DNA of 64,000 bases from Octopus vulgaris. Lineage: Eukaryota. The DNA is taken from contig OX597824.1 in assembly GCA_951406725.2 (NCBI GenBank), positions 60,202,001-60,266,000 on the forward strand, written 5' to 3'. The translations under genes were made by a program, and so were the position numbers. A model generated the notes under the pieces. It had not been told where the DNA came from and did no database searches. It was given only the letters and a program-made list of their open reading frames with translations. Positions within the stretch are counted from its first letter, which is position 1. Each line of letters begins with the position of its first letter. This document shows, in pieces, positions 11,243 through 33,799 of this stretch.

Positions 11243-11245
<3 letters not shown>

Positions 11246-12503
11246 TAAATTAGAGATAAAACCACTATTAGGCAAATCAAACAATGAAAAACATAAGCCA
11301 ATACATAAAATTAATTAATTTATATTATTTTAAATATATATCAAAAGTATTAAAAGTTTAATAAAAGATAAAGAGTAAAACACTACGATCGTTTCATGGC
11401 TGTACAATTCGTAATAATTCGAGTTATGGTTACAGTCAATCTTCAGGTTAATTGAAATATCTAAAATATAATCAGAAATATTTAAACAATATTTTTAAGA
11501 TATAAATAATATAATAATTTTACTTATAATAAACTCTATTATCAAACTAGAAACATAAAACTTAACAATTATGATTATATCAAAATCGACTATAATGTTA
11601 AATATTGATTTTAATTTATAAGGTAGGAAACCCACCAATAATCTAATATCAGTATTAGTCTATATCTAATTACATAAATATTTAAAAATGACTAATATAT
11701 ATAAATTATCAATGAAAATATATAAATGTATATAAATATTATAATTAAGATCTAAAATAATCTCTATAAATAAATATATATGCACATATAATAAAAACCT
11801 AATAAATTAATTTTTCATATTTAAAGATGAAATAGCTAATTTCAAAATACAAATAAACAAACTTAAACAAACTTTCGGAAATCTTATGTAAAATACTTAT
11901 AGAAATAATCAATTCGTAGTAATATAGTATCGAATAAATACTATAAATACTATAAATATAATTATCAATGGGAATAACTAGCGAATATCAATTTAAAGAA
12001 ATAGCTAAGTTATGCTATTAAATTAGACATGGCCTGGACCAATCTTTAGTCGAAACATATCTAAGTTTATCAAAGTTTATCTAATTTAATTATAAATTTA
12101 AAACTACAATTAATACTATTAAAACATGTATATACAAAAGCCTAACTTAATACACCTCGTATGCTTGCTATCAAATAACAAAACTATCGCTAAGTAGTAT
12201 CTTACAAATAAACTTAAATTTAATATCTAATAATATAGAAAATTACAATAATTAGATCATTACATAAACAACGATATTTACATAAGGAAAATATTATTAC
12301 ACCAAAGACTTATACAATATTAAAATTTATAATTTGAAGATCTTAAATATAAATACATATTTATCTTAGCGAGGTTTAGCAATGAACTTTCATCTCTAAT
12401 TTAATATAATATAATATAATATATATTTTACTATAAAATTAGATTTAATCCTAAATCTGATTTTTCCCTGTAAGTTTGGATTTATTCCCTAATATTTTAT
12501 TAT
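11243..12503 (-). mobile_element. Very AT-rich non-coding element carrying a hammerhead near its 3' end (putative non-autonomous Penelope-like element)
   Basis: Bounded by (TA)n tracts, with no convincing ORF, and contains the 11378-11452 hammerhead. Confidence 0.45.
11378..11452 (-). ncRNA. Type I hammerhead ribozyme motif (Penelope-type)
   Basis: Minus strand reads aac-CTGAAGA-t-tgactgta..(26 nt)..tacagcca-t-GAAA-cgatcg-TA-gtg. Core is intact, stem II pairs 7/8, stem III is a palindrome, stem I is weak. Confidence 0.65.
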
Positions 12504-12538
<35 letters not shown>

Positions 12539-13552
12539 ATGATGGACTCTCCCATTGAAAATGATGTATGAACATTCAGTCTTTGCTGAATGACCTGAAC
12601 AAATGATCATGTAGATCCTCCTAATTATCAATGGAGGTCAAATACCATTGCAATGGAATGAAAGTAGTGGACAAGCTACCTTATCATTCAGAAATCAAGA
12701 TATGTTCATCAAAGAAAAACCACCATTTGTCTAGGGAATGTATCTCAGTGTTCATCCAGGTTGGCAATGATACCAAAATCAATCTTATCTCAGAGTTTGT
12801 ATTTAAACCATTCAAACAAGTCATCTCTCATGCCTGATACTTTTGTTTTACGACCTCCTCCAGTGACTCTGAAATGCTTCTTTGGATTTTTTTTTCAGCA
12901 TTGTCAAGTTTACCTTTCAGATATTTTTCATATTTTTCTTTGATGAACATATCTTGATTTCTGAATGATGGCAAGTGCTTGTTTTTCTTCTATAGAATAA
13001 TTTCCATATGTCACACCACAAAATACTCTTTTCTCTACCATAGAAAAAGTTCAAAGAGAAATTACTTGAATTGTGTTGATATTGTTAAATCTTATTCCAT
13101 AAAACGTTTGTCCTGTAAGGATAAACAGTTTGTTGTTTTATACTAGTTACGGGAGTCAGTTTAATTGACTTTCTCCTCTCTTTTAAATTGCTGGCCTTGT
13201 GCTTAAGTATTGGGCAACGTGCCTTGCAGAATAGAGTTATAGCCAAATACGTTCTGAGTTCAATCCTGCTGAGGCTAGCTTTACATTCTGAGTTCAATCT
13301 TAGCTTTATGTTCTGAGATCTATCTCACTGAGGGGTCGATAAAATAAAGCACCGCCAATGTACTGGGTTGCTTTAATCCACTTGTCCCTCCCCACAAATT
13401 GTTGGCCTTGTATCTAAATGAGAAATCCTTTTTTTTTAATTTTCTAGGCTGTCACCCTTGATTTTTTTCTAAAACCAGAATTAGTTATTTAGTTTATATA
13501 TCCTATTTAATTTATAATATATGGTATTTCTTAAAATGTTCTTTTTTTTTTG

Positions 13553-13585
<33 letters not shown>

Positions 13586-13906
13586 GTTTTTAACGTAAAA
13601 TAAAATTATTATTAGATTTTCCAGCTGTTGTATCAATATGAATAGCTTACAATAAAATTTCACCAGAGATAGATTAGCAAAATTTAATAAGGGAGGAGGG
13701 TTGGAATAAAAGTGTGTGTGTGTGTGGGGGGGGGGGGGGTTCTTAAAAATTAATAAATGGCTGGGGTTGGACAAAAAATCTGAAAAATTAATAAGCGTGG
13801 AGGTTGGAATAAACGTAGTGGGTATGGAAAAATCTGAAAAATTAATAAGGGGGTGGGGCGATTATTCAAGACCCCAGAGTAAATTTGTGGTTGCATTAGC
13901 TAAGTG

Positions 13907-14311
13907 CTAATGTGAAAATTATAAAATAATTAAGATGAAGGCAGCTATGCACAATATAAAACCAAAAAAGAAAAAATTAATTATCACTAATTGTGACTGG
14001 GGGTGCCAAGTAGCACTTATGTTGCTAGAAAGAAGAGTTAAAAACCCTTAGACCTGCAAGAAAGCACATTTTCATGTACTGACATGGGAAACAAGTCTAG
14101 TGTAGTAATCTAGCTTCAATTATGGGATGGTTATCACCCCTGACAGTATATGAAAATGTACTTTCTTATGGCTCTAAGGGTTTTAACTCTTATTTCTAGT
14201 AATATGAGTGCTACCTGGTACCCTTAGTCACAATTAATGACAATTGAATTTTTCCTTTTTGGTTTTATATTGTGTATAGTTGCCCTTGTTATTTTATAAT
14301 TTTTACATTAG
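13907..14311. repeat. Inverted-repeat element (~180-bp arms) with a truncated hammerhead at its centre; third copy at 16198-16438
   Basis: Left arm is the reverse complement of the right arm (gtgccaagtagcac vs gtgctacctggtac). The right arm aligns to 16225-16438. Confidence 0.85.
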
Positions 14312-14478
14312 AATTTTGCTAGATTAGCCATAATAGATTCATATGGTAAATACTGGATCATCCCATAAATAATGCAGTTTTTTTAATAATTCTTTTAATT
14401 TTCAAAATTAAGATAAAAAAGTTCTTTTTTAATCTAAAATATACTCCTTCATTTTCTACAATGCTTTTCCATCTGTGT

Positions 14479-15004
14479 CAGGGTTGGGATAACTTTTTAG
14501 TGTGGCAGGCAAAAATTTCCTAAGAAAAAGGTGTGCAGGCTGGTCACAAGTTCTAACTCTTATATCTGTGTAAATCTTGTATATATATCAATTATATATA
14601 TCTATGTATATATATCTTGTATATATATCTATTCGATATACATTAGTAAAGATAAGTTTAACACATAAAATTAACACATAGCATCTTCATTAACACCACC
14701 AATGAATTTTGGACATTTATATTTTATATTTTTCAGCTAGTGTAGTTGGGTCTCAAGTAGGTGTTACTAACATAGCAACATGTTTTATTGTGATAAAAAA
14801 ATTTCCATTCAAATGGCAATTACCAGACGATTTCTATTCAAATGTGACCCTTTTAAGTCATAGTGGAAATGTGACCTGTATCGCAAAAAGGCATACAACT
14901 ATTGTATAAATTTTGTAATTGAAAAATTGACTACATTTTGTACAAATAAGTATATCAGCCTGCAGGCGCAACTGTGCCTGCAGGTGAGGTTTTACCCACC
15001 CTTG
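14479..15004. mobile_element. hAT-type MITE
   Basis: Ends cagggttgggataac / tttacccacccttg, with subterminal gcctgcagg repeats. Confidence 0.55.
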
Positions 15005-15039
15005 AGCTATCTGTTAGACTTGCAAGGCCCATCTTCCAA

Positions 15040-16161
15040 AATTCACTTGTCTGTGATGAAAAATACTCCTCCAGTGCTGTTCTGACCTAATCTACAAAAT
15101 TCATATTTTTTCCGTCCAAATGGTTTTAAATTCTGCGGAATAAATGATAATCAGATGGGGCAATGTCCAGCGAATATGGTGGGTGAGGCATTGTTTCCCA
15201 TTCAGTCTGCTCCAGCCTTTGGAATGTCATCTTCGCTATATGTAACTGAGCATTACCCTGATAGAAGAACGCCTTCTGTCTTAATGGCTGTTTTTCTTCT
15301 AACGCTGACTTAAGTCACTCAAGTTGCTTGCAGTAGATCTCCTTTGTTATTGCTTGGTTTGGGTTTAAAAGTTCAAAATGGACTAAACCTTTCACATCCC
15401 ACCAAACAGATAACAACACCTTACATGGGTGAAGACCTTCTTTAAACTGGAGTGCCGATATTTCTCCTTTACCTACCCACTGTCTTCGGCTCTTGACATT
15501 TTTATAGAGAACCCATTTCTTGTCAGTAGTCACTATTTGGTCCCCAAACCGTTTCTTAGTGAGATGTGACAGCAAAGAAGAGCACACATTCACTCTCTGC
15601 ATGCGATCAGACTCGGAAAGTTCATGAGGATCCCATTTACCTAATTTACTGATTTTTCTGATGGCACACACGTGTCGATGAATGGTTGAATGACCAAACC
15701 CAAGCTTCTCTTTTAGTTCCTCAACAGTTATGAAGAGATTTTGTTCCATCAGGTTTTGCAGGATGTCCTCGTCAAGCTCTACAGATCCCAGGACAAGGCT
15801 CATTTTCCAGCCTGTAGTTTCCAGCTCAGAATTTCTGAAACCACTGTTGACACTTGCCTACGCTTAATGTCCGGTCTCCATATACTGCATTAACATTCAT
15901 CACACTTTCCGTTGCATTGTTGCCTTTATTGAACTCATAAAGCAAAATATGCCGAATATGTTCTTTTGTCACTTCTATTATAGCTTTGAAAAAATAACTG
16001 TTAAAATTGAACTGCACTCTTCAAAACTTGCACTAAGAATAGGGACATGGTAAAATTACTACCTGCTTTTATGCATGTTGATGCAGGTAGTTTATCCTGT
16101 CCCCTTCCAACTTAAAATTCATGCATTTGAGAAAAAATGCATTATTTATGGGATGACCCAA
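15040..16161 (-). mobile_element. Degenerate mariner transposon (second family)
   Basis: HIRHILLYEFNKG, WDPHELS (WVPHEL motif), IVTTDKKWVLY, and a PYSLDIAPSDYHLF-like segment near 15135-15185. End ttatttatgggatgacccaa-ta. Confidence 0.9.
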
Positions 16162-16197
16162 TATATATACTGATAAACCATTCAGCAATGCAGTAGT

Positions 16198-16243
16198 CAT
16201 TACTGATGAGCTTTTAATTTTTAGGCAAAACTAGTCAAGTATA
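16198..16243 (+). ncRNA. Degenerate type I hammerhead ribozyme motif
   Basis: catta-CTGATGA-gctt..aggc-aAAA-ctag-TC-aagta. The sister copy near 14088 reads GAAA-caag-TC-tagtg, which restores GAAA and the stem I pairing catta/tagtg. Confidence 0.55.
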
Positions 16244-16536
16244 GCGATCTAGCTTCACTTATGGGGCAGTTATCTTCCCTGTCAATATAGGAAAAATGTG
16301 CTTTCTTGCAGCTATAAGCATTTTAACTCTTATTTCTAGCAATTTAGGTGCTACCTGGCACCCTTGGACACAATGAGTGACAATTTAATTTATATCCTTT
16401 TTGGTTTTTTTATTGTATATAGCTGCTTTCGTTATTGTATATATATATATATATATATCCTTGTGTGTGTGTGTGTGAGTGTGTGTGTGTGTGTGTGTAT
16501 GTGAATGAGTCTTTTTGTGTGTGTTTGTCCTCTACT

Positions 16537-17174
16537 ATCTGCATATTCCACATCTAAGAACTAGAAGACCTTCGACATCTCCTTATTAATGTTATTTTTC
16601 CCGGACATTTTCCTGTGGATATTCCTCCTACTAAAAAGAAGAAATATTTCAACAAGACAATGAAAAATTTGTGCAAAGAAATGAGACAGTAGCAGAATAA
16701 AAATTCATAAACACTGTCAATATTTGTACCCAATCTATAATGTTCCCCTATGTGTAACACCATGTTTCCAAAATTACCATACCAAATAAATAATGCCTGT
16801 TTATTGCAAATAAAGTATGTTTATCTTCGTGTTCTTTTTTACTCCTTTTTCTTTCTTATAATTATAATCAGAATATATGTGTATTAAGAAAAAAATGCGA
16901 TGTTTCATGATTGCGTCAACAGGTTTTTATTGTGTATCATCTAATAACATATGATATTAAATAGCAGAATGTTTTCAGCAATAACAAACATCAGAAAGTA
17001 TTCATTCTAAGTAAAAAAAAAAAGAATACGATTCAAAGTAAAACACATACTGAGAAATAATTAATCTGGGAAGGGGTTAAAGCTAGCCCAGATATCTTCA
17101 AAGGAACAGGTTTTCAATGAAAACTCTGTACACTGCAATGAAGCCCTTAGAAAATACAGTTTTAACATGAAGTA
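16537..17174 (+). mobile_element. piggyBac 3' fragment plus ~95 bp of flank
   Basis: GHFPVDIPPTKKKK..NVPLCVTPCFQNYHTK* (piggyBac Cys-rich C-terminus, frameshifted); terminus gggaagggg|TTAA at 17077-17080. Confidence 0.75.
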
Positions 17175-17366
17175 CCATGGGTTGACAAATGGTGTTGGTT
17201 TGCTTACATCCCAGTAACTTAGCAGTTTGTGTAGAAGAGACCAGTAGAATAAGTACCATGCTTAAAATTAAATACTGGGGTTGATTCATTTGACTAAATC
17301 CATTAAGGTGATATCCAAGCATGCTTGTAGTCTTGTGACTGAAACAATTAAAAGCTAAAAGATATA

Positions 17367-19690
17367 TCATCATCGTCGTTTAACGTCCGTTTTCCATGCT
17401 AGCATGGGTTGGACGGTTCAACTGGGGTCTGGGAAGCCAGAAGGCTGCGCCTTGCCCAGTCTGATCTGGCAGTGTTTCTACAGCTGGATGCCCTTCCTAA
17501 CGCCAACTACTCCATGAGTGTAGTGGGTGCTTTTTACATGCCACCTGCACAGGTGCCAGACAAGGCTGGCAATGGCCACGATCGGATGGTGCATCTTTCG
17601 TGCCACCAGCACGGAGGCCAGTCGGGGCAGCGCTGGCAACGGCCACGTTCGGATGGTTCTCTTATGTGCCATTGGCACTGGTATCACGGCTACAATTTCC
17701 ATTGATGTTGATCGATTTCGATTTTGATTTTCATTTTCGTTTTCACTTGCCTCAACAGGTCTTCATAAGTAGGGTTTGTGTCACAAGAAGGAAAGGTATA
17801 CATAAGTGAGCTGGCTACGTCCCAGGTAGAGGCCATGGGTTATGGTCTCACTTGTCCTGCCGGGTCTTCCCACGCACAGCATACTTCCAAAGGTCTCGGT
17901 CTCTGGTCATTTCCTCGGTGAGACCTAATGTTCAAAGGTCGTGCTTCACCACCTCATCCCAGGTTTTCCTGGGTCTACCTCTTCCACAGGTTCCCTCAAC
18001 CGCTAGGGATTGGCACTTTTTCACACAACTATCTTCATCCATTCTCACTACAACCATACCAGCGCAAACGTCTCTCTTGCACACCACAACTGATGCTTCT
18101 TAGGTCCAACTTTTCTCTCAAGGTACTTACACTCTGTCGAATATGAATACTGACATTACACATCCATCGGAGTATACTGGCTTCATTTCTTGCGAGCTTA
18201 CGCATGTCCTCAGCAGTCACAGCCCAAGTTTCACTGCCATGTAGCATGGCTGTTCATACACATACGTCATACAGTCTGCCTTTTATTCTGAGCGAGAGGT
18301 CTTTTGTTGCCAGCAGAGGTAAGAGCTCTCTGAACTTTGCCCAAGCTATTCTTACTCTAGCAGTTACACTTTCAGCACACCTGCCCCAGCTACTGACTTG
18401 GTCACCTAGGTAACGGAAGCTATCAACAATTTCTAGTTTTTCTCCCTGGAATATGGCGGAAGTTGGTCTCTGAGCATTTTCAGTGTTTATTGCTCCTGAG
18501 CATCTGCCACGTACAAAAACTATCTTCCTAGTTAGCCTTCCTTTGACATTGCTGTACCTCTTATGTGTCCATAGCTTACACTTGGTACATCTTATAGAGT
18601 TTTTACCTACGCCTTTTCTACAGATCGAGCAGGGCCATCTACCTGAAGGCGTTTGTGATTTGTCTACCTTCCTACTGATTACGACTTTGGTTTTAGCTAG
18701 ATTGACTCTGAGGCCCTTCGATTCTAATCCTTGTTTCCACACCTGAAACTTCTCCTCCAGTTCTGATAGTGACTCAGCAATTAGAGCAAGGTCATCAGCA
18801 TATAGGAACTCCCAGGGGCATCCTGTCTTGAATTCCTCCGTTATTGCCTGGAGGACTATGATAAATAGGAGGGGGCTGAGTACTGAGCCTTGGTGGACCC
18901 CTACCTCTACCTGGAATTCTTCACTGTACTCGTTTCCAACCCTCACCCTACTAGCAGCGTCCCTATACATGGCCCGCACAGCTCTCACTAACCATTCACC
19001 TATCCCTAGTTTCCTCATTGCCCACCAGATAAGGGATTGGGGGACCCTGTTGAAGGCTTTCTCCATGTCAACAAAAGCCAGGTACAGGGGCTTATCTTTG
19101 GCTAGGTATTTCTCCTGCAGCTGCCTTACCAGGAATATAGCATCAGTAGTACTTTTCCCTGGCACAAACCCAAACTGCATCTCATCTAAACTAACTCTCT
19201 CTCTAATTAGTTGGGCTATGACCCTCTCCGTAACCTTCATCACCTGATCCAACAGCTTGATACCTCTGTAGTTATTTGTATCTAGGGCGTCACCTTTACC
19301 TTTGTAGCAGTTGACTATTATGCTGCTACACCAGTCATTGGGTATGACTCCTTTGTGTATCACCTGATTAACTATACAGGTGACTAGGCTATAGCCGACA
19401 CTACCAGACATTTTGAGCATCTCTGCAGTGATTCCTGATGGGCCTGGGGCTTTCCCTGTCTTCATGCTTCTAATTGCCTTAGCTACCACGGAACTATCAA
19501 CTCGAATAGCTGGTCCCTCTGTTGGGTCAACATTCGGCAGACTCTCTTTATCCCATTCACTTTCTTTATTCAGCAACCTTTCATAGTGGCATCTCCAAAC
19601 CTCTCTCTTTGCAACCTCATTTAGCGCAAGTGAACCATCTTCCATGCGAACACACTTCTCTCCTACCACATCACGATTCTCTCTCACACA
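17367..19690 (-). mobile_element. 5'-truncated RTE-clade LINE with a long open RT frame (18254-19690), 3' UTR and (GAT)n tail
   Basis: KAPGPSG, NYRGIKLL, QFGFVPGKSTTDAIF, FVDMEKAF, GVHQGSVLSP, LYADD, FRYLG; continues after a frameshift as MLHGSETW..LRWYG. Confidence 0.95.
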
Positions 19691-19922
19691 TATATAAAAC
19701 TTAATCATCACTAAGCGATGAGCATTAGAAGAGCATTAGTGTATATATTAGTATGAACTGTTCAAGCAGTCACCACTGACAATGTCTACAGTATAAATGA
19801 AACAAGGCCCAGATGAATATGGTACTTAATTTGAGGCTCTAGAATTTAGTATGGTATTATCCATACAATTTCAAAGTAAGGTGATTAAAATCAAAATAAG
19901 CAACAAGGATATCCAGAGGTAA

Positions 19923-20007
19923 TGCATATGATAGTTTCATGCAACTCCATTTAATTGAACAAGGCAAGCATTACATCAAATTAAAATGTAGAGCAATCTT
20001 CAGCTGC
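19923..20007 (-). ncRNA. Decayed inverted copy of the 20214 hammerhead
   Basis: Minus strand reads tgcag-CTGAAGA-ttgctc..gttgcat-GAAA-ctatca-TA-tgca. Confidence 0.55.
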
Positions 20008-20213
20008 ACAAAGACAGAATTTAATTAAATTAGAACTGACCCCATAAAGACAAGAAAATCAGTGGCATCCAGAGTCTTCTTGCTAATTTTAGCATCCTCT
20101 ATGTTGAAGTAGAGACAACATGTTCTTTGTCTATCTCCTTAACTTCTTGGAGATTTTAGGTATAATTATACTAATGTGTCCATCTGTTCTAATTTAATTA
20201 AATTCTGTGTTTG

Positions 20214-20300
20214 TGCAGCTGAAGATTGCTCTACATTTTAAATTGATGTAATGATTGTATTGTTCAATTAAATGGAGTTGCATGAAATGATCGTACTGCA
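20214..20300 (+). ncRNA. Type I hammerhead ribozyme motif with extended stem II
   Basis: tgcag-CTGAAGA-ttgctc..ggagttgcat-GAAA-tgatcg-TA-ctgca. Perfect 5-bp stem I, intact core, near-palindromic stem III. Confidence 0.75.
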
Positions 20301-22237
20301 TTACCTCTGGATATCCTTGTTGCTTATGTTGATATATATATATATATATATCTTATGTCATAATAATAATAATATTAGGGAGTATATATATTCAATTCTT
20401 TGTCTCTCTGCCTGTTACCTATGTATTCTCAAACGGCTCCACGAAATCAAATCAAATTTTACAAGGTGTCAACATGGAATTTATATTTTCATTTGGATTG
20501 AAACAATATAACATTTTCTTGAAAGTTAGCTTTCTATAGTCAACTATAGTAACGGACATTTTATACGACGACGATGTCACATTTTGTATATGAGCGTATG
20601 AATCTGTGTGTGTTCATGTGTTCATTATGTATGAGATAGTAAAGGACATTTTATATGATGACGATGACAACGACAACACGTCTCTATCATTCTCTCTTCA
20701 TTCTGTCACCCAGTCTGTCTGGTGTTGGGTACCAAAAAAATTATTACAGCTACTTTCATTATTTACAATCTTCTGTACTGGTGTATTTGTGTATCAGTAA
20801 ATAACCATGGGTAAATATTTCGTAAAGGACCCATTTGTACCTCGGTGTGAAATAATTTTTGGTAATTGTTCAGTTTGGGGATATCAAAAAAGTAAATAAA
20901 AATTAAGGGGGAGATAACCTGTAAAGGAACATAAATAAGTCAACTTACTGTTAACATGAATACTGTAGCGAGATAACATGGCGAATTACAATTTTTGCAC
21001 GTGTATAAATTCATAATTAGTTGACGCTATGCCAACCACTGAAGAATCTTGTCATGATTTGGCTAATTGGGTGATATTTCAAGATTCCTCTAAGATTGAT
21101 TCACAGTTGAGGATTTCAGTTTTAGGAACAATGAATTGCAATCCCACTGGTCTTCCACTTGTCATTCTGATCACTTTCAACAAGAAGTTGACTTATGTCT
21201 CTTTATGAGTTATCTCCCCCTTAATTTTTATTTACTTTTTAATATCCCTAAACTGAACAATGACCTAATTTTTTCCACAAATTCTTTTGAGACACTTTTT
21301 CCAGAAAAGAAAGTGGGAGAAGTGGTTAGAAATTTATTTCTAAGTGAAATATTGGCAGGTTCTTTATCACAAATAGCTGTTACATGGTAGTAGGGTGTGC
21401 TGGAAATAGTAGCCAAATCTTTCCTTTTCTGGGGTGGGGGAGGAACTGTTTATGAGTGATTTCGATGTCACATTCATTGAAAGTATGCAAAATAACCTGG
21501 AAAAGTAAAACATAAACCCGTGAAACAAAACTCCATTGGTAGGGAGACTGAGAGGTCCCCACCAACCCTCCTTACTTTTCTGGAAAAAAGTGGCTTGTGG
21601 CAGGTTTGGAGGTCAGATATGTTAAATGCACTTGAAAAACTCATGGAAAAAAATTATTTCACACCAAGATACAAGCAGGTCCTTTACAAAATATTTACGA
21701 AGCCCCTTGTATATATCATCATCATCATCATCATTTAACATCTGTTCTATATGCTGGCATGGGTTGTTTGGTTTGACCAGGGCTGGTAAGCTGAGGTGCT
21801 GCATCAGACTTCATCTGATTTGGCATGGTTTCTTTGGCTGGATGCCTTTCCTAATGCTAACCCTTCCAAGAGTGTAATGGGTGCATTTACATGTCACCAG
21901 CGTGGGTGCCTGTTGTATCACACTAGTATCAGCTACAACTATGATTTTACTTGGCTTGATGGGTCTTCTCAAGCACGGCACATTGCCAATGGTCTCAGTC
22001 GTTTGTCATGCCTCTGTGAGACCCAGTACTTGAAAAGTGCTGTTTACATACCACCATGGCCATGCTGAGGAACTGCTTTAAAGAAGTTTTAGTCAAATTT
22101 GTCAACCCCAATACTTATTTTCTTTTTAAGCCTGGTACTTATATTATTGGTCACTTTGCTGATCCTCAAAATTACAAGGACATAAACACACCTGCACCAG
22201 TTGTCAAGTAGTGGTAGTCAGACAAACATAGATACAA

Positions 22238-22277
<40 letters not shown>

Positions 22278-22469
22278 GTATATGTTTGATGGGCTTCTTT
22301 CAGTTTCCACTTACCAAATCCACTCACAAGGCAATAGTAAAAGACATTTGCCCAAGGTGCCATATAATGGGACTGAACCTGAAACCATGTGGTTGGGAAG
22401 GAAGCTTCTTAACCGCACAGTCATGTGTTGTACACATTCTCAGTTAACTGAATTATTTTTAAACTCACT

Positions 22470-22865
22470 GTAGAATGTATAAGTATCTTCTAAGGGCCAG
22501 GTATTTAATGAGAGTGAAGTTGCTGTTTTTTTCTCTTGGAATTAGAAAACACATTTGATTACAGACTAAATCTTTATTTAACTGTTAAGCTTATGTATAC
22601 AGAGGAAAAATTGGTATTAACCAATTTTCTACCTTAGAATGGATATAGATTGGTGTTTATACAGTTATAGTTGAGTGAGTTTTGTTGGATCAGCTGAATT
22701 TTGTAATTTTGAGTCTCCTGTGGTAATTTATTTAGAGAATATTGTAGGTTTTAGTGTAAAAGATTTTTGTGTATTTTTTATTCTTTAGTTTATATTTGTA
22801 GTTGGTTGGCAAATGTTTGTCTAATAGTCTAAAAAGGTATTTAGCTGTGAGTGTAATATGTAAAT
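22470..22865 (-). mobile_element. Penelope-like element relic (linker plus GIY-YIG endonuclease)
   Basis: KYLFRLLDKHLPTNYKY (compare FL.LIDKHFP), then a decayed YNC..YP, VYISLT (YIG-like), and ATSLS..W. Confidence 0.55.
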
Positions 22866-23379
22866 TCAAGGGCCTTGTTTCAGGCGTGTACCAGGGAACA
22901 GGTTCTCTCCTTGACACTTTTTCAGGAATAGGGAACAAACCATCTTTTGTCCCCACTACTTTTTCCCAATTAAAAAACAAAGTACCTCTGTCAATATAGG
23001 TGGCATGTAGCATAGTGTCAAACCGGTGCAGGAGGAGCTAAAAAATCTACACAGTGAAGAAAAATTCCAGTTCAATACAGCAGAAAAAAAATTATTTATC
23101 AACTCAATATTTCTCCTTTGGTGCTACCAAGGCAATGAAAACTTCCCAAAAGACACCAAGAAGGAAATGCATTAAAATATCAACACTGCACTGTTTTGGA
23201 TCATTACAGAGTGCAGTATTTGCAGGTAATAGATGCTGCAATCAGTGGCTCAGGAATTAAATTTGCTTAGTGGGTGCAAACTCAGGTTCAAACTTTTTAC
23301 AAAGATGGCCGATTTTTTTTCAATAAAACAAATGCAAGTATAATAATATTTTGCATTATCATATATGGAAAAGTAATGC

Positions 23380-24200
23380 TTCAAATCATTCCCCCAATTT
23401 TTCTATACTAGTTTGTTTAGGCGATGAAGTTTTCCAAGAGAAGGTCAAAGCGTTTTCCTTGCACAAGTTTGATGTACATGCATTATAGCACAGTGTATCA
23501 GATGATGTCGCATCATTGTGGTATGGAGTCAAGTCTTCAAACAGCGAAGTGTGCTGAATATTTTCTCATTTGATGCAACAGACACAGGCTTGCAACATGA
23601 TGGACATTCTCATCACAAAGGCTTGTCCATAGCGCTTTCAGAAGAATGGTGTTCTAGCAACAAAGTTCAATGCCTCAGTGACCAGGTCACCTGTAGATCC
23701 AACTTCTTGGAGGACAAAGTTCAGAAAGTGGTTTCTGCAGTATATAAAATGCATACCTGGTAACATGCCTTTTAATCTCTTTTGTATGCCTGAAATATTT
23801 CCACTCATGGTACATGCACCACTGAGGGTGAAAGCAGCATAATTTTGAGCCCAGAGAAATGTTTAGACAACAAAAAACATCCATAATAACCTTAGTCAGT
23901 GTCTCTGAAGTGTAGTCAGGAGGGTTATAAAAGCTAAGAACATCTCCATGGATATCCAAGTCTTCACAAACATAACGGACAATGATTGATTCTTATTCCA
24001 TGCCAGAACAATCACATATAACATCAATAATCATAGAATTTTCAATTATTTTTCTCATCTGATGTAGGGTGTTATGTGCATTAGCCTTTAGAATTTCATT
24101 ATGTATAGTATCAGATAGAAAATTAACTCGTTCAAACTGCTGACTTATTTCTGCACCACATTTCTTTGGAAAGTTCTTTTATGTGATTTACGAAGTTTCC
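23380..24200 (-). mobile_element. hAT (ZMYM1-like) transposase relic, N-terminal/central part
   Basis: DIHGDVLSFYNPPDYTSETLTKVIMDVFCCLNISL, followed by decayed DG..MSG and HC..H.LNL motifs. Confidence 0.65.
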
Positions 24201-24827
24201 AATGGTATGTGTTAACTTTCTCTTCAAAACTGGAACTCGTAACTTCTATCTTTTACTAAGGATATTCCTTGATCCTTCTACAATAGAACTACGAAATGCT
24301 ATTATCTTTTACTGAGGATTTTCTTAATTCTCTGATCATGAAAGTGCTAACCACTATTATTTTTCACTAAGTATGTTCTTTACTTCATTGATGAACTGGT
24401 AACTAATAATGTCCTTTATTAAAGATGTTCCTTAATTATTTCTCTCTGAAAATGAAATAGTTGGCTTACATGGAAAGCTTTGCTCAATGATATATGATCC
24501 ACATGTTCAGCTAACACCTTATTTACTATAACTACTCTGCAATTATGTTTGAATTATAGATTACATGCTCTAAAGTAATACCACATGTTTTACTTGTTCA
24601 TCTCCATTTCTAATATATATCTACCAGTTCAATGATGAACCATTTATAGCCATCTTTGATGAGCAGCTTCAAAAACACCTTTGTTTCAGCTGCTGCTCAA
24701 GCCAAAGTTTTAGTGGTAAACCAACCTGAGTACTTAGAATACAAATGTATCACATTATGTCATTAGATGAAATTTTTAAAATATGTATACATGTATATTT
24801 ATATATATACATATATACATACATGTA

Positions 24828-24879
<52 letters not shown>

Positions 24880-25194
24880 GACATATATGATGTACACACA
24901 CACACTCATGCATGTGCATGTGTATGTGTGTGTGTATACTACAACCTTCATTTCCGTTTACCAAATCCACTAAGAAGGCTTTGGTCAACCCAAGGCTATA
25001 CTAGAAGACACTTGCCCAAGGCGTCATGCAATGGGACTGAACTTGGAACCATGTAGTTGGGAGATTTCAGTTGTTGTAGGGCTGCAGCCATGGTGGAGCA
25101 CCACTTTTGTTTATTTTCTATCAGCTTTGTTGCCACTTTTATAACTGGAAGTATGGCTGATTGGTCCGATATTTTTGTTAGGAGTTTATCCAAT

Positions 25195-26060
25195 GTTTTC
25201 TTTCTCTTTTGTTTAATGTTTCAGTAGAGATTCCTTTGATATTTCTGGTTACTTTAGGCAGGCAGTTGAACAGCTGAGAACCTCTAAATATCAGACTCGT
25301 ACAGTAAAGTGATTTTGCTTGTGATTCCAAAGGTGGTATATTTGGAAGCTGACAATATCTAACAATTTGTGCATTAAAATTCTCTCTAATGCTGAAGTTT
25401 GGAACAGCATTCAATATAGTAGAGATGCAACACTTTCAAATATTCCTAGTAAAGGCTTTTAACTAAGATATTTTACTGATGAATGTTCTTCATAAACCTT
25501 CAGTTTCTTCTATGAGACCAAAGTTCTGAGCAGTAATCTAACTTGCTCAGAACTGAGGTTTTCCATAGTTTTCCATGGTTCTCTTGTCATGAAGGTTTGT
25601 AGAACCCATCCTATAAGATGTCTGCATTTAGAAGCTAGTTTGGTGATGTGGCTAATGAAAGATACATCATTTGACATGATTACACCTAAGTCCTGTATGT
25701 CATTAGTGCTCTGAATCATTGTGATTTGTATGTATTCCATCTGTCATGAAGAACCTGAAATTTTGTTGCATTAAATTTCATATTCTTTTAATCTACTCAT
25801 TGATAAATGATGTATATCTCATTTTGGAGTGTAACAGTATCATCTGGAGTTTGGATAGCCATTGATATTTTTGCATCATTGGCGTAACTCATTAGTTTGG
25901 ATGCATGCACTTCTGATAGGTTGATAATAAATAATAATAGTCCTAGAACCATTCCCTGAGGAATACCACTTATTACAGGTGACTTTGCAGACAGAAAACC
26001 ATTTCCAGCAACAGATTGTCTCCTACCATGTAGGAGGTCAAACAGCCATTTTCTGAGTTT
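25195..26060 (-). mobile_element. CR1/L2-group LINE RT fragment
   Basis: SGIPQGMVLG, SYANDAKI (YADD-like), DLGVIMSND, RGSQLFNCLPK. Confidence 0.8.
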
Positions 26061-26269
26061 TTATTTTATTTATTTTTATATTAGTTTTTATTTTGTGAAG
26101 AAACCTAACTTCAACTTTTTACAGATCAATACACTGTTTTCTAAGCCTGAGAATGGTATGTAGAGGGTGCAATATTGAATTTTGCACTCCCCACAAAATT
26201 TTAGGGGGTGCAATTGACCCCCACACACACACCCACACTGCACCCCCTGTTCCCATGACTGCCATAGCA

Positions 26270-26990
26270 AAGTTGAAAGATTATTTTTTTATCACAGAAT
26301 TTAGAGCAGATTATGGAAGACTGAGCAATATCTTACTCAATGAAAATTTTTGCGCTGAAGTGATCATGCAGTATCCAGAGCTTGGTGAATTTTCTTTAAA
26401 GAATGAAATACGTTTTTATAGAAATCATCATAGTGGATCATCGTAAAATATTCAGTGAAATGCAATGAGAAGTCCATCGCATGTTTCCAAATGTTGAGCA
26501 ATTGCTCAGATTACTTTTAGTTTCTATCCAGTTCCTGTGAAGCTAAAAGATCTTTTAGCACTCTGCGGACACTCAAAACTTGAGTGCAATCGACCATGAC
26601 TCAGCAAAGGTTGAATCATACTCTACTATGCCACATTCTTAGAGATGTTTTGGAAAAGATTAGTTGTGAGGAAGTTGCTAAATTATTCATTGATAGCTAT
26701 GATGTGAGATATGATACATTTGGAAAGTTCTAACAGATAATAAATTTACTTAATATTTTTTATTCAAACATCTGTTTAATTTTTTTGTTTATTTAATATG
26801 ATAAATTCTTTTGAAGCTTATTATTTTTATATCTGAACTTCATTTGAGTATATAAAATTTAATTAGCATAACATTTTACTTATGTGACAGAGTCCGGGAA
26901 AGGCACCATAAGCAATATTAACATGCTCCTTTAAAAATCAACAAATGTTGGTTTGTCCCCCTCACATTTTTAAGGCAATTGTGGCCCCTG
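26270..26990 (+). mobile_element. hAT transposase C-terminal dimerisation domain relic and right end
   Basis: MFPNVEQLLRLLLV..SSCEAKRSFSTLRTLKT*VQSTMTQQRLNH..FGKF*; terminus tgtggcccctg. Confidence 0.8.
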
Positions 26991-27084
26991 TGTAAATTGA
27001 AAGGTGAAGTGTACCAGAGATGTGTTCTTTTTTGTTTTTACTTCTTTTCAAGGGACTGGTTTAATTAGGAATATATTTTACTTC

Positions 27085-27721
27085 TTCCATATTAAAACTG
27101 CTTCTTCTAAGGACTTCATTGCAGTGTACAGAGATTTCATTGAAAACTGTTCTTTTGAAGATATTGGGATAGCTTTAACCCCTTCCCAAATTAATTATTT
27201 CCCAGCATGTGTTTTATTTTGAATTGAATTCTTTTTTTTTTTACTTAGAATGAATACTTTTTGTTGTTTATTATTGCTGAAAACATTCTGCTATTTAATA
27301 TCATATGTTATTAGATGATACACAATAAAAACCTGTTGACGCAATCATGAAACATCGCATTTTTTTTTACATACATATTTTCTGATTATAATTATAAGAA
27401 AGCAGAAAAAAGGAGTAAAAAATAAGAGGGTAAACATACTTTATTTGCAATAAACAGGCATTATTTATTTGGTATGGTAACATGTATGGAAACATGGTAT
27501 TACACATAAGCAAACATTACAGGTTAGATACATATATTTAAAGGCGTTTATGAATTTTTATTCTGCTACTGTCTCATTTCATTGCACAAATTTTGCATTG
27601 TCTTGTTGAAATATTTCTTCTTTTTAGTAGGAGGAATATCCACAGGAAAATATTGAGGAAAAAATAAATAGGATAGGGAAATGTCAAAGGTCTTCAACTT
27701 TTGGATATGAAATATACAGAT
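27085..27721 (-). mobile_element. Inverted second copy of the piggyBac 3' fragment plus the same flank
   Basis: Reverse complement of 16537-17174; TTAA|ccccttccc at 27175. Confidence 0.8.
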
Positions 27722-28043
27722 GATATTTTGTGATAGTTTGTTCAATGAATTGCAGAATTAATAACAACTGTCGTGAGTGAGCTGTATATCCATGCATGCT
27801 GTCTCTGAGTATTGAGCAGAATCTAACAAAAAAAGTTCTGTCAGTGCTTATCACATCTGGCTAACAGGCTTAGAAAGTTCATAAGGCAATTTATGTGTGT
27901 GAGAATGGTCCAGAAAGGTTGGAAGACTATGGAATTACATCATGTTACTAGTCCATTATATATTTTTAGGTAATATTTTTGTGCCTTTCACAAAGAATAA
28001 CAATATCAAACTTTGAGATATCTTGAGATAAACTAGGAAGAGA

Positions 28044-28271
28044 TTAATCCTTTAGCATTCAGTTAACCTTGTCATATGTTATGCTTATTTATTCACACTG
28101 TTTTAAATTTATCATTCATCATCTTATAGCTTCAAGATTTTAGTTGTGTGATTGTTTATTTTTAGAATGTCATTGTAGAGTATTTGTGAGAAGCCAGATC
28201 TGCCTGCTCTGAATATAAAACAGGGAGAATATTTAGGCTGGCTATGGCTGGTTTAAATGCTAACAGGTTAA
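28044..28271. mobile_element. TTAA-flanked (piggyBac-type) MITE; related copy at ~43925-44100
   Basis: ttaatcctttagcatt .. aatgctaacaggttaa. Confidence 0.7.
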
Positions 28272-29994
28272 ACAAGTATTTTTAACTAAACTGTTAATAA
28301 TTCTTTTTTGGGTGATTGAAGGATTTCTGGATGTAATGTAGCTTTTTATTCTTTTAATTTTGCAAGTCAGTATATGTAAAATAATTTAACCCTAGAGTAA
28401 TGTCTAAGAAATTAACAAAATCTAGACAGGCCTCTACTGTAAATATAGACTCAGAGTCTCTTAAAAAATTGATATTACAAACTGAGGAATTAAGTGAAAC
28501 TATGTGTCAACATACATGAGTATTGATACTTATACACACACACACACGCATATATATGCATGTGTATATCCGAGCATACACCCATACATCAGCCTTTCAA
28601 ATGTACATGTACTTTTTATGTGTGAAAATTTACATAGATTAGTCAATCTTTCAAGTTGCATTATTGTTAATTTATATTAATAAAACTTTCTGAGAATGTA
28701 AATTCTTTTAAATTTAGTAAAAGTACAATATATTGTCATGAGATTCCATGTCATTAATTATTTATAAACACACATAAGCACACACATGCATGCATGTGCA
28801 CACACACACATACATACACACATGCACAGATAATCCCACTCGTGGACGCAACCTCAGGTATAAAGACACACAGACAGACAGACAGACAGACATACACACA
28901 TGCATGCTCTCACATAGAGACACACTCATACATACCCTCATGTGCATACACAAGCATTCACACACATGCATACATACATACACACTCACATATGCATGCA
29001 CATTTGTACACATACTCACATACACTTACACACACACATAACCCCCATACTCAAACACATACCCACCCACTCACACATATACCCCCTCCCCACGCACATA
29101 CACACAACCACACTCACTTTCTCACACACACAGACTTGAATAGGGAGTCAGAGGTCAGTAATTATCACAGAAGGTATTTATTATCTCTCAGCTGCTGATA
29201 ACATCATGATTGAATGTAATTTTTGACCACACTCCACCTTCCTTAACACCTGACTAATAATCACACCTTCTCTAATGAACACATTAACACTATTACAAAC
29301 AACTAAGTGCTACAGCATGCTGTGACAGACTCTCTTCAAAAACAGTTCTTGTGTCTCTATCCAAGGCTGCGATACTATCAAAGTCCACCTTGGTCCAGTC
29401 AGTACACCTGCCTCATTCTTCTATTCCCATGACTATGACGTGTCACCCCTCAATACTCCTACTTATACAATGTTCCCAATCTAGGTAACTGACGTCAATA
29501 ATTAACTGTTTGTAGCAGGATCTAAAACTGGAGTTTAAATCTCAGTGTTTATAATAGTACAAGTAATGAGAAATGAAGGCAGATGGGCTGAATGCCTGTG
29601 TATCCACATTTGAGTTGTTTTTAGATGTTTGGGGATTTGTAGAGAGAACTGATTTTGGTAAAAAAAAAAAAAATTAAGGAACAATTGAAAGTAAAGTTGG
29701 CATATATATGTTTGGTAGTTTAAATTTCAATATTGACCAACCCATATCAACTATATATGTGTGTGTGTATATATATATATACACACACACATATATAGTT
29801 GATATGGGTTGGTCAAGTGGTTGGCATTAGGAAGGGCATCCAGCTGTAGAAATTCTGCCAGATCAGATTGGATCCTGGCACAGCCATCTGGTTCGCCAGT
29901 CCTCAGTCAAATCATCCAACCCATGCTAGCATGGAAAGCGGACATTAAATGATGATGATGATGATGAAAGTTATATGTGTGTGTGTGTGTGTGT

Positions 29995-30304
29995 GGAGGT
30001 GCAATGGCCCAGTGGTTAGGGCAGTGGACTCGCGCTCGTAGGATCGCGGTTTCGATTCCCAGACCAGGTGTTGTGAGTGTTTATCGAGCGAAAACACCTA
30101 AAGCTTCATGAGGCCCCGGCAGGGGCGGTGGCAATCCCTGCTGTACTCTTTTGCCACAACTTTCTCTCACTCTTTCTTCTGTTGGCCTGCTTGCTTAGCC
30201 AGCAGGGTGGCGTCATTCGAAGGCTAAAACAATGTGAAGCGCATTGTGACCAGTGATGTGTAGCAACATATGATAGCCTGGTCAGTCACGGTAACCACGG
30301 TGAT
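29995..30304 (+). mobile_element. tRNA-derived SINE (family B)
   Basis: A box tggcccagtgg, B box ggtttcgattcc, ~300-bp body ending in cacggtga repeats. Confidence 0.75.
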
Positions 30305-30366
30305 ATATATATATATATATACACCCACACAGATGCAAATACATTTAAATTTAACACTCACAGACG

Positions 30367-30413
<47 letters not shown>

Positions 30414-30891
30414 ACATGTCATACAGCTGCTATCAGGGGAAGATAAACTTTAATTGTTGTTGTTGTTGATGATGATGATACATACATACATGCATGCATA
30501 CATACATATGTATGTTGTATACATATACGTGTGTGTATATATATACAAAAATATGTAATATAATATATAACATAATATATATAATGTAATATATATTTAA
30601 ATATATATATATTCTTTTATTCTTTTACTTGTCTCAGTCATTTGACTGTAGCCATGCTGGATCACTGCCTTTAGTTGAACAAATCAACCCCAGGACTTAT
30701 CCTTTGTAAGCCTTTTACTTATTCTATCAGTCTCTTTTGCTGAACCGCTAAGTTACAGGGACATAAACACACCAACATTAGTTGTCAAACGATGGTGGGG
30801 GACAAAGATAGACACACAAATACACACACACACACACATACATACACACACACACACACTCACACACAAACAAACACACACACACACACAT

Positions 30892-30920
<29 letters not shown>

Positions 30921-30922
<2 letters not shown>

Positions 30923-31511
30923 AGGAATACCAAAAATGGGACAAGAACACAAAACATCCAGACAGATGATACAAAAAACAAGGATGGGTCATTCGGAGTT
31001 TTCTTTCTTCAATTGAGTTCCAGATTATCTTTGCAATTTCGGCTTGTTATACTCAAGATTGCGCCAATCTGGTCAGCCTCAAGGAAAAACTAAGCTAAGA
31101 GCACTAGATTCCTTGAAAGAAAGCAGTGAATGTATATGAATACAAGGACAGAAAAAAATGGAGAAATGATACACAAATATAGATGTAAATAAGTACATTA
31201 ACAACAGGTGTCTTTCGACTAAGGACGAATTAAATTAAGCTGGCATGTGTGGAAGCAGGGACACATTTGCTGCTTCTTCCAAGGAATCTAGTGCTTATAG
31301 CTTAGTTTTCCTTGAGGCTGGCCAGATTGGAGCAATCTCAAGTATAACCAGCCGAAATTGCAAAGATAATCTGGAACTTAACTGAAGAAAGAAAACTCTG
31401 AATGACCCATCCTTGTTTTTTTGTATTGTCTGTCTGGATATTTTGTTGTCCCTTTTTGTATCCTCTAATTGTCTGGATGTTTTGCATTCTTGTCCCATTT
31501 TTAGTATTCCT
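30921..31511. repeat. Head-to-head inverted repeat (~210-240-bp arms) in (TA)n context
   Basis: aggaataccaaaaatgggacaagaa.. versus ..ttcttgtcccatttttagtattcct. Confidence 0.9.
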
Positions 31512-31551
31512 TTTTATATAAATATAGCAGCGTACGTACACTTTGGTTTCT

Positions 31552-31597
<46 letters not shown>

Positions 31598-32074
31598 ATG
31601 GGCTTCTTTCAGTTTCCATCTACTAAATTCACTTAGAAGGCTTTGGTCAGCTCAAGGTATGCAGTGGGACTGAACCTTGAACCATGCGGTTGGGAAGCAA
31701 GCTTCTTATCACACAGCCACTCCTGCACCTATATGTATAAGATAAATAATATAATACAGTATGATATAATATATTTATATATATAAAATATATAATATGT
31801 GTGTGTGTGTGATCATCATCATCATCATCACCATCATCATTCAATGTCTTTATTCCATGCTGGCATGAGTTGGACAGTGGTGCATGACAGTCCAAAGTGT
31901 AGGTATAAACTCCATATGCTGTATGCCATGTAAGCTATGGACATGCAAGAGATGTAGTGCAATCACAAGCAAACTAATAGAGAACATAAGCTTATGTTCT
32001 CTGCTAGTTTGCTTGTGATTCCACTACATCTCTTGCATTGGGTACAGTATATGGAGTTTATACCTACTCTTTTC

Positions 32075-32574
32075 TATATATTGAGTAAAGTCATTTCCCT
32101 GAAGGTACCAAGGTCCTGCCTCCTTTTCTACCTACTAAAATCTTTGTCTTTATTTAAGTTTACCTTAAGGCCTTTCAAATATAATCTTAGCATCCATACT
32201 CAGAATTTCCTGTGTAATTCTTCTACAGATCCAGTTATAAGAACTAGCTCATCAATATACAGGAGTTCCCATGGACTTCTAGTCTTAAACTTCTCTGTGA
32301 TGGACTGTTGATCTATGATGACTTACAGGGAACTGAAAGCTGTGCCTCAACCTTCACACAAAGTTTATCACTGAAATCATTGTTGATACTCACTTTACTG
32401 CATCTTTGTACATGGCTTATACAGCTCTCACAAGCCATTCATCGATGCCTTGTTTTCTTAATGCGGTACTCTGTCAGATGCTTTCTCCAGGTCAATGAAA
32501 GCCATAAATAATGGTTTGCTCTTAGCCAAGTATTTCTCCTGCAGAAGCCTCACTAGGAAGATTGCATCTGTTTC

Positions 32575-32575
<1 letters not shown>
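32075..32575 (-). mobile_element. Degenerate RTE RT fragment
   Basis: Homologous to 18650-19150 (DAIFLVRLLQEKYLAK, FIDLEKA). Confidence 0.8.
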
Positions 32576-32623
<48 letters not shown>

Positions 32624-32802
32624 CACATCTACACACACATATATACATACATATATACATATATCTACACATGCAGACATATATCATCATCATCATCATC
32701 ATCATCTAGAATTCCATGTTCGATGGTTGTCAAATTGTCTAAGCCATGTCAACATGGAACATGAACATTATATGATGTTGATGATTTATATATTTATGTA
32801 TT

Positions 32803-32842
<40 letters not shown>

Positions 32843-32867
32843 TGTAAAAATGGAATTTTCATTTCAG

Positions 32868-33002
32868 GATGAAAATAGAAAATCAGAATTCAAAAGAATG
32901 TGTAAGCAACAAAAGTCATAAACATTTGAAGAAGGAAATTCAAGACAAAGTCCGCAGCTACCACAGAAATCCAGTTGCAGAGAATAAAATTCCATCTTAC
33001 AT
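32868..33002 (+). CDS. Internal coding exon of FAM161A-like gene (135 nt, phase 2-2)
   Basis: Acceptor ttttcatttcag and donor gtgagt. Reads (x)MKIENQNSKECVSNKSHKHLKKEIQDKVRSYHRNPVAENKIPSY(I) with no stop and joins the 40186 exon in frame. Basic/charged composition fits; homology is weaker than for the next two exons. Confidence 0.7.
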
Positions 33003-33543
33003 GTGAGTTACTTCTTAGTATCCATTGTAGTTGCTGATTTTAGCCCAAGGCAGCATCGATTATGCTGACTTATGATCTAAGGTACTCCATTCACACCCAT
33101 TCTGTCTCTTGCAGGTTAGGATATCTAGAACTTCATCACTATCCAACATATCCCTCCTTTTTTAAAAACAGTAGTGTATGACAGGAGGGAAATTTGGTTT
33201 CTATTTCTATCACGTGAAATGGCTACAAAGAGGTTCTCTTGATTTGCAGTTATTTGCTTTTGTTTTTGTTGTTTGCTACTGTCTTTGTTATTGTTGTTTA
33301 CTGTTAGGTCAGTCAGCTCTCATCAAACAGTCATGAGCTGCCTTTAATTCAAACATAATAGTCTACCTAGGATTACTTATGCAACTTGTTCTCTCTTTAT
33401 TTTTGTGAAATGACTTGAGTGGGATTCAGTTGCTGTTTCTAACAACGAGTTGTAACTCCTTTGTCAACCCAGTTTGTTGTTATGATCTTGAACACAATAA
33501 TACTATGTGTGTGCATGCATGTGTATATATATATATATATATC

Positions 33544-33799
33544 GAAGTGTACAGTATCATATATTCATTATGGCAATCTTGCCAATTGGTTTTGCGCTAG
33601 GGATTCAACAGAGTGTTAGGTAGCAGTCAAATTATGTAACCTTGTGTTCATCAGTGGTAGCCGTTATGGAATGAAATACGGCTACCTCTGATGAGTGCAG
33701 GGTTACATAATCAGACTGTTACCTAACACTACATTGAATCCTTAGCCTGAAACTGATTGGTAAGATTGGCTATAACGGATATATAATACTGTCCACTTC
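33544..33799. repeat. Head-to-head inverted repeat (~120-bp arms, ~12-nt loop) with a hammerhead in each arm
   Basis: gaagtgtacagtatcatatat.. versus ..atatataatactgtccacttc. Confidence 0.9.
33681..33770 (+). ncRNA. Type I hammerhead ribozyme motif with extended stem II
   Basis: gctacct-CTGATGA-gtgcaggg..tccttagcct-GAAA-ctgattgg-TA-agattggc. The inverted sister arm has CTGATGA..cctagcgc-aAAA-ccaattgg, giving a palindromic stem III consensus. Stem I is imperfect. Confidence 0.6.

Follow-up and report, generated by a model that had tools for sequence, protein, structure and literature searches.

In a 64,000-nt stretch of the Octopus vulgaris genome (assembly GCA_951406725.2, contig OX597824.1, forward-strand positions 60,202,001 to 60,266,000; hereafter the window, numbered from its first letter), we found seven sites with hammerhead ribozyme motifs, which fall into four repeat families, F1 to F4. 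We consider it probable that these families are decayed, 5'-truncated 3' ends (pseudo-long terminal repeats, pLTRs) of Penelope-like elements (PLEs) of the Hydra clade, whose ancestral RNA is predicted to have formed a type-I hammerhead active mainly as a dimer. Their distinctive trait is a stem II domain of 44-58 nt in three of the families; otherwise they are of an already described kind. The family-level test beyond the window concerns F3, one of the four families, and F1, F2 and F4 are represented by their window copies. On its consensus letters, F3 has the sequence features of a type-I hammerhead and is predicted to cleave itself.

Hammerhead motifs and architecture of the four families

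Every position at which the first-pass annotation had placed a hammerhead proved to hold a real motif, with the type-I layout and the self-complementary stem III that it had described. However, most of the sites are decayed: the core letters are complete in four of the seven, two carry a G12>A change and one lacks the CUGAnGA half. The long stem II claimed for three families was likewise borne out, the domain measuring 44 nt in F1, 58 nt in F3 and 54 nt in F4, next to 17 nt in F2.

The F3 locus consists of two opposed arms. The right arm (20060..20333, + strand) comprises a 5' extension, a core at 20219-20295 with a U.U-closed 58-nt stem II domain, a 6-bp stem I and the consensus GAAA-CGATCG-TA, and another 38 nt before a (TA)n tract; high sequence depth in the family-wide data described below begins at ~20110. 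The left arm (19810..20039, - strand), which is 92.7% like the right one, has its core at 20003-19927 and continues into an optional 80-nt tail (19810-19889) present in this arm only. Both cores (+20219 and -20003) are intact, and both palindromes are mutated (TGATCG and CTATCA). To the right of F3 lie nested inverted repeats (20811-20860 with 21649-21698, and 20858-20952 with 21179-21268), which suggest a MITE-like (miniature inverted-repeat transposable element) or foldback insertion.

F1 (11245..12426, - strand) is composed of an AT-rich upstream part (~940 nt, 19% GC), the hammerhead and a 3' part of ~139 nt that runs to (TA)n. Its core (11384..11446, - strand) is perfect, with CTGAAGA, a U.U-closed 44-nt stem II domain and GAAA-CGATCG-TA, the predicted cut falling after 11384; stem I is weak, two pairs being followed by mismatches. 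A copy of the F1 3' end lies inverted at the 5' side of the element (12388..12426, + strand; head-to-head, 93% over 41 nt), and a second, 5'-truncated 3' end (6221..6287, + strand; 87% over 67 nt) stops at the same position and has no hammerhead. That the AT-rich body of F1 might be a mitochondrial insertion was also considered, but nothing supported this. By eye, a 22-nt AT-rich string in the upstream part (~11717-11738, - strand) resembles the 3' untranslated region (UTR) of Naiad_Omin as printed in the supplement of PMC8557442, which is probably a chance likeness in sequence of 19% GC.

The right arm of F4 (33678..33799, + strand) has an intact core (33688-33762) with a G-start 54-nt stem II domain, a GUA triplet and a 10-nt near-palindromic stem III, in the sequence CTGATTGG-TA. 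In the left arm (33544..33664, - strand), which ends in (TA)n, the core (33654-33580) carries G12>A and U16.1>C. The two arms are 80% alike and differ by 18 transitions and 5 transversions.

For F2, the full motif emerges only when two copies are combined. F2a (16198..16441, + strand) contains a hammerhead at 16203-16236, followed by a 3' part that reaches (TA)n; its motif (+16203) reads CTGATGA, a 4-bp stem II, AAAA in place of GAAA (G12>A) and then CTAG-TC, with a GUC triplet. F2b (14089..14395, + strand; 80% like F2a, with a distal extension) is 5'-truncated at GAAA, so that it holds the 3' motif half, GAAA-CAAG-TC, without the CUGAnGA half. An inverted and more truncated arm, F2c (13897..14090, - strand), has no hammerhead, and an inverted distal 3' piece directly upstream of F2a (16111..16182, - strand) matches ~14333-14395.

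The loci share an architecture. All five motif loci show head-to-head inversion with the 3' ends pointing outward, and four of the five end directly in (TA)n, microsatellites being common in the window. The hammerhead lies 37-205 nt from the main 3' end, and a one-sided extension is present in F2 (~75 nt) and F3, where the tail of 80 nt compares with 30-40 nt published for PLEs. Head-to-tail tandems with hammerhead units are absent from the window, in which Tandem Repeats Finder reported 74 tandem arrays, three of them with a period of at least 30 and none of these three at a motif locus. We could rule out that the inverted pairs act as cis-dimers, their two motifs being on opposite strands. 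Because read-through RNA from such a pair would join sense with antisense and not yield an active dimer, the window copies themselves are likely dead.

The first-pass annotation had called the families unrelated. Regarding the flanks this holds: of 23 between-family comparisons, a single one scored slightly above the top value of 100 shuffles, and the within-family comparisons (n = 5) reached z values of 20-32. However, "unrelated" is overstated, since F1 and the F3 consensus have CTGAAGATTG and CATGAAACGATCGTA in common, i.e. both core halves together with the unusual U.U at the base of stem II.

Two further repeats of the window came up in the motif inventory. One has two copies (4149-4201 and 5500-5552; 80% over 54 nt) that start with CTGATGAA(A/G)GG, have no GAAA half downstream and are likely another retroelement 3' end. 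The other is a head-to-head pair at 30913-31520 (30933-31133 and 31263-31457; 88%), with (TA)n or AT-rich sequence at both ends and a partly duplicated 3' end, whose arms both carry GA-GGCTG...CAGCC-GAAA-TTGCAA, that is, a long hairpin and a palindrome, with a 5' core TCCTTGA and no UH thereafter. This hammerhead-like but non-canonical motif, the same in both copies, may represent a fifth family of PLE type whose ribozyme is divergent or dead.

F3 beyond the window and the specificity of the motifs

Sequence nearly identical to the window was found in 20 listed runs from 9 studies. Contigs or reads from four runs (X4, X7, X14 and X21) were mapped on positions 19760-20332 at a likeness of at least 80%, which placed 8530 F3 contigs from X4, 3799 from X7 and 819 from X14, the last, a run only presumed to be RNA, not being counted as transcription. 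In X4 the summed depth rose to 1.4 million over the arms, whereas the left flank had 154-205 and single contigs had 29-90; this suggests roughly 10^4 copies of F3, summed depth being no true copy number.

The majority letters of these contigs restore the palindrome in both arms (20288 T>C in 97-99%, 19933 A>C in 85-100%), so that thousands of contigs confirmed the CGATCG consensus which had been predicted for F3 from its two mutated copies, and the core is intact in the F3 majority. A further majority change, 20258 T>C (97-99%), turns a G.U of stem II into a G-C pair. In the 40 of 51 variant rows listed, no variant of at least 15% affects a core letter or the U.U pair; variation was seen at the free position N7 (A/G), and the palindrome is swapped from CGATCG to CGGCCG in 7 contigs. 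At pair 10.2-11.2 (U-A), the consensuses of loose ends (123 and 76 contigs) have A at 10.2, and U occurs at 11.2 in 21-51%.

The contigs also define two F3 3' ends, 37 and 117 nt past the predicted cut: loose ends in (TA)n at 19889/19890 (12 and 4 contigs) and contig ends at 19810. The listing of contig joints gave 15 of 78, which include 7 head-to-head junctions originating at other loci but no head-to-tail join of units.

When the core was held unpaired, the F3 majority sequence adopted a structure of -17.2 kcal/mol, made up of stem I and a single long, irregular stem II; the minimum free energy (MFE) structure has -19.6 kcal/mol. For F1 and the F3 majority, stem III as a self-duplex gave 8 bp and -10.0 kcal/mol, against 0.0 within one molecule. 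Pairing of stem III between molecules only is the textbook arrangement of a dimeric hammerhead.

Standard searches detect little of this. A strict hammerhead descriptor recovered none of the seven sites in the window, and the sole site that passed it (41599) was rejected, since its gap spans 93 nt and its stem II has 2 bp. A relaxed generic version brought back two of the seven (+33688 and -11446), of which only +33688 ranks clearly over shuffles (score 12, compared with a mean of 0.03 in 100 shuffles). With patterns tailored to the motifs, the matches numbered 3 (0.03 expected), 1 (0.00 expected) and 1 (0.01 expected); these statistics are optimistic, since the patterns were drawn up post hoc. 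Rfam returned no hammerhead among the 150 of 238 matches listed for the whole window, no hit above the gathering threshold in 9000-24000 and no hammerhead among 18 matches in 33400-33900. The F1-F4 patterns had no match in two public collections (metagenome_contigs and viral_contigs), and looser ones matched 3, 11 and more than 120 stretches, the last unstructured and in prokaryote genomes; we treated the looser matches as chance, since only 1 of 134 examined had at least 3 pairs in both stem I and stem II.

One might therefore ask whether chance alone produced these matches in AT-rich repeats, so that they never were ribozymes, as could be argued from the failure of most single copies under generic descriptors, from the empty Rfam results and from the abundance of unstructured matches to the loosest pattern. 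Against this stand the F3 majority letters, which restore the palindrome and a stem pair exactly and vary at tolerated positions, and the core halves, both of which match the published Hydra-clade pattern letter for letter. We regard a chance origin of the motifs as highly improbable.

Relation to Penelope-like elements and retrozymes

In PMC8557442 (Craig et al. 2021), the Hydra clade is defined with (TA)n targeting and its hammerheads are listed in File S2, whose rows the core halves of the window motifs match letter for letter. By our count, stem II is closed by U.U (ctga.gat...tgaa) in 14 of the 25 Hydra families listed there; the stem II domain has at most 26 nt, and other families show a G-start with a 10-nt stem III. 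Hydra-1_cRog (aac-ctgaagat-tg...ca-tgaa-ac) matches F1 at both core halves. More generally, the hammerheads of the clade, for example those of Penelope-1_HM, Hydra-1_cRog, Hydra-1_aJap, Penelope-1_SK and Hydra-1_oBim, share with the window motifs the type-I layout near the 3' end and the GUA or GUC triplet, and the clade further shares the U.U closure seen in F1 and F3, the G-start with 10-nt palindromic stem III seen in F4, (TA)n targets and inverted 5'-truncated copies. From these likenesses we conclude that F1 to F4, although not linked to an open reading frame (ORF), likely belong to the Hydra clade.

There are also differences. Stem II domains of at most 26 nt in the clade contrast with 44, 58 and 54 nt here, and stem III in the clade is mostly centred on an odd base, whereas even palindromes (CGATCG, CTAG) occur here. 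The motif of the Octopus family Hydra-1_oBim differs in sequence from F1-F4. A PLE precedent for a long stem II is offered by the Selaginella PLE-X hammerheads, the only ones in File S2 with a long loop 2 (29-34 nt, on a type-I core); those elements, however, are from a plant, lack an endonuclease, target ribosomal DNA, are flagged as non-canonical and are unrelated in sequence.

A different PLE clade is a further candidate source of the 3' ends: Neptune, Poseidon, Nematis or Naiad, the last of which has a long, AT-rich 3' UTR. A U.U closure is found in the PLE-linked motifs of D. willistoni as well as Hydra (PMC4209133, Fig. S3), Naiad also targets (TA)n, long AT-rich 3' UTRs like the upstream part of F1 occur in Octopus Naiads, and in some Naiads the half cores stand far apart (PMC8557442). 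However, most Poseidon- and Neptune-type motifs have a G-C-closed stem II and no stem III (PMC4209133, Fig. S3), and when motif strings of F1-F4 were compared with the PMC8557442 supplement, CTGAAGATTG and CATGAAAC occurred together only in a Hydra family. The Naiad_Ovul 3' motif matches none of F1-F4, and its HHR_half_core was rejected by sequence as a source of F1, F3 or F4. An origin outside the Hydra clade thus appears quite improbable.

In PMC4209133 (Cervera and De la Pena 2014), many divergent hammerhead families per genome are described, mostly as single truncated copies, together with opposite-strand pairs 100-700 bp apart, palindromic stem III and weak cleavage as dimers. The window motifs share with these minimal and small-palindrome hammerheads of metazoan PLE pLTRs the divergent families, truncated copies, opposite-strand pairs, palindromic stem III and predicted action as dimers. 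They differ in that none of the four motifs fits the descriptor example given there (stem II of 3-7 bp, loop 2 of 3-10 nt, no stem III insert) and in that the consensus there has G10.1-C11.1. A natural U10.1-U11.1 mismatch was reported in PMC3088659. PLE features on record also include the inverted 5'-truncated copy, the one-sided tail and hammerhead pairs on opposite strands (PMC8557442, PMC4209133, PMC11167929); the tail was explained by two internal start sites of the reverse transcriptase (RT) in PMC11167929, where the ribozyme of an in vitro rebuilt PLE was protein-assisted and dispensable for insertion.

The first-pass annotation had considered the set possibly undescribed. This can apply to no more than the single families and their long arm, since U.U closure, palindromic stem III, triplets, (TA)n targets, pairs and tails have all been published. 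Our literature search yielded no report of long-stem-II hammerheads in cephalopod or Hydra-clade PLEs; Repbase, Dfam and preprint supplements lay outside it and may hold them.

That annotation had further read the elements as non-autonomous and Penelope-derived, and while PLE origin is likely, truncated 3' ends of autonomous PLEs would give the same picture as non-autonomous ones, and none of the longer-period tandem arrays lies at a motif locus. The contending explanation sees in at least F3 (~230-310 nt) and F1 (~1.2 kb, non-coding) either non-autonomous elements or solo non-LTR retrozymes, derived from PLE pLTRs and copied in trans by PLE proteins, whose ribozyme may release and circularise unit RNAs. 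Such retrozymes (PMC7229834; bioRxiv 10.64898/2026.07.22.740005) have ~300-nt high-copy units with a type-I hammerhead, and according to a 2026 preprint, animal retrozymes, monomers included, derive from PLE pLTRs (bioRxiv 10.64898/2026.07.22.740005). The axolotl HHR_Amex2 even shares the U.U at the base of helix II and, with a 2-bp helix III, cleaves to 22% as a monomer and more as a dimer (PMC7229834). Within our data, a ~100-fold drop of F3 depth between 20120-20139 and 20080-20099 and the long F1 upstream part without an ORF speak for it. However, the depth drop may reflect subfamily divergence, because many letter differences and loose ends running on upstream (28 contigs each in X4 and X7) coincide with it. 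Moreover, retrozymes are defined by head-to-tail tandems and circular RNAs, and such tandems were seen neither in the window nor among the 15 of 78 F3 joints listed; their loop 1-loop 2 tertiary contacts were not identified in the window motifs, and truncated PLE copies agree with the variable 5' ends, the inversion and the tail on one side only. On balance we judge this explanation unlikely and prefer truncated Hydra-clade 3' ends.

An ORF relic that had been taken to indicate Penelope machinery in this genome lies at 22470..22890 (- strand). Interrupted by stops and frameshifts, it does resemble by eye the thumb, linker and GIY-YIG region of Hydra-clade ORFs as printed (FRLLDKHLP compared with FRLLAKHFP, an eroded CxCX5C linker, TATSLSLNTW compared with NATELSKHIW). 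In this clade a GIY-YIG domain lacking CCHH stands at the C-terminus, and the ORF has a CxCX5C linker and a DKT motif. However, this likeness has no computed counterpart, and the relic is more than 2 kb off the nearest motif, with other repeats between, so that it neither adjoins nor is linked to any of them. A six-frame scan with PLE motifs gave nothing convincing. The 5' extension of F3 holds QSLLDNF ~145 nt before the core, which resembles the end of the Hydra-1_oBim ORF both in its residues and in its spacing, and KFLHNNL could be read from an F3 loose end with an agreement of 0.63.

Several observations weigh against our assignment. Concerning coding capacity, searches with the relic gave no relevant family in Pfam over six frames, only two phmmer matches, both to unrelated repeat-rich proteins, and no match in word searches; no motif in the window is linked to an RT or endonuclease ORF; no trace of an ORF was recognised in the ~940-nt upstream part of F1; and QSLLDNF, at seven residues, is a weak hint of an ORF end and no more. 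Concerning folding, unconstrained MFE prediction gave the hammerhead in none of the F3 majority and six window copies, none of the stem II domains, taken by itself, exceeded shuffles in stability (z -1.6 to +0.9), and of two reconciliations of the F4 arms one has the hammerhead as its MFE structure (-19.8 kcal/mol) and the other one fails. Concerning the F3 data, the 80% likeness required of contigs favours apparent conservation, and the changes at 10.2/11.2 and in the palindrome, although compatible with compensation, were not seen in phase. Run X21 (raw reads labelled as the same species) gave 11 partial F3 reads in 1934 million letters, a yield unfit for a high-copy family unless the run is from another genome or was filtered. 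As for architecture, head-to-head inversion is not diagnostic here, since ~10 other short-range inverted pairs without hammerheads occur in the window, and the 74 tandem arrays add to this background of inversions and repeats. A chance origin is more plausible for F2 than for the others, because no single F2 copy is whole. Finally, in one study 8 of 9 predicted Xenopus retrozyme dimers failed to cleave (bioRxiv 10.64898/2026.07.22.740005).

Neighbouring sequence, proposed mechanism and significance

The window is animal DNA with 36% GC and many microsatellites and interspersed repeats, including RT and mariner relics. A 493-aa open frame at 18254-19735 (- strand) matches RVT_1 (E 2.9e-31) and is presumably RTE-like, and a mariner-type transposase piece at 15315-15857 (- strand) matches Transposase_1 (E 1.2e-18). 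Two perfect palindromes centred on (TA)n with arms of 100% identity (48470-48599 and 29733-29816) are either recent inversions or assembly artefacts and account for sub-threshold Rfam matches to miRNAs. A longer palindrome at 62422-62885 (arms of 231 nt, 96%, spacer of 28 nt) has no recognised hammerhead, and 9-12 copies of a short interspersed repeat (families D13-D19) cluster at 41986-54230 on one strand, often next to (AAT)n.

For truncated Hydra-clade 3' ends, we propose the following course. A full-length element would be transcribed, as we infer from published PLE biology, and its ancestral RNA would fold into a type-I hammerhead and be cut after GUA or GUC mainly as a dimer, with stem III pairing not within one copy but between two, either tandem pLTRs or separate RNA molecules, over 6-10 bp, perhaps with the help of the element's protein. 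We predict that the long stem II domain forms a single irregular hairpin attached to a normal core. The RT-endonuclease would nick AT-rich or (TA)n DNA and reverse transcription would start internally ~37 and ~117 nt past the cut, two starts that would, as we propose, give rise to the optional tail. Early termination and inversion would leave short head-to-head pieces, which would later decay largely by CpG transitions.

A bolder version, which we hold to be doubtful but not far-fetched, is that several Hydra-type PLE lineages in this genome share an expanded, structured stem II of 44-58 nt missed by standard descriptors and Rfam, that F3 is a 300-nt non-autonomous element of ~10^4 copies whose ribozyme selection has maintained in all its subfamilies, and that the long arm serves a separate function. 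If this were true, the long arm might replace the loop 1-loop 2 contact or bind the element's RT, and PLE hammerheads would be systematically undercounted, possibly including Naiad half cores.

We see here neither a new ribozyme class nor a new kind of mobile element. However, since the long stem II falls outside the published descriptor and Rfam, these families are invisible to standard searches, and searches with loop 2 limited to 10-17 nt overlook whole families. With its very high copy number, its naturally occurring paired variants and its oversized stem II, a family such as F3 would be a convenient test case for dimer- and protein-dependent cleavage.

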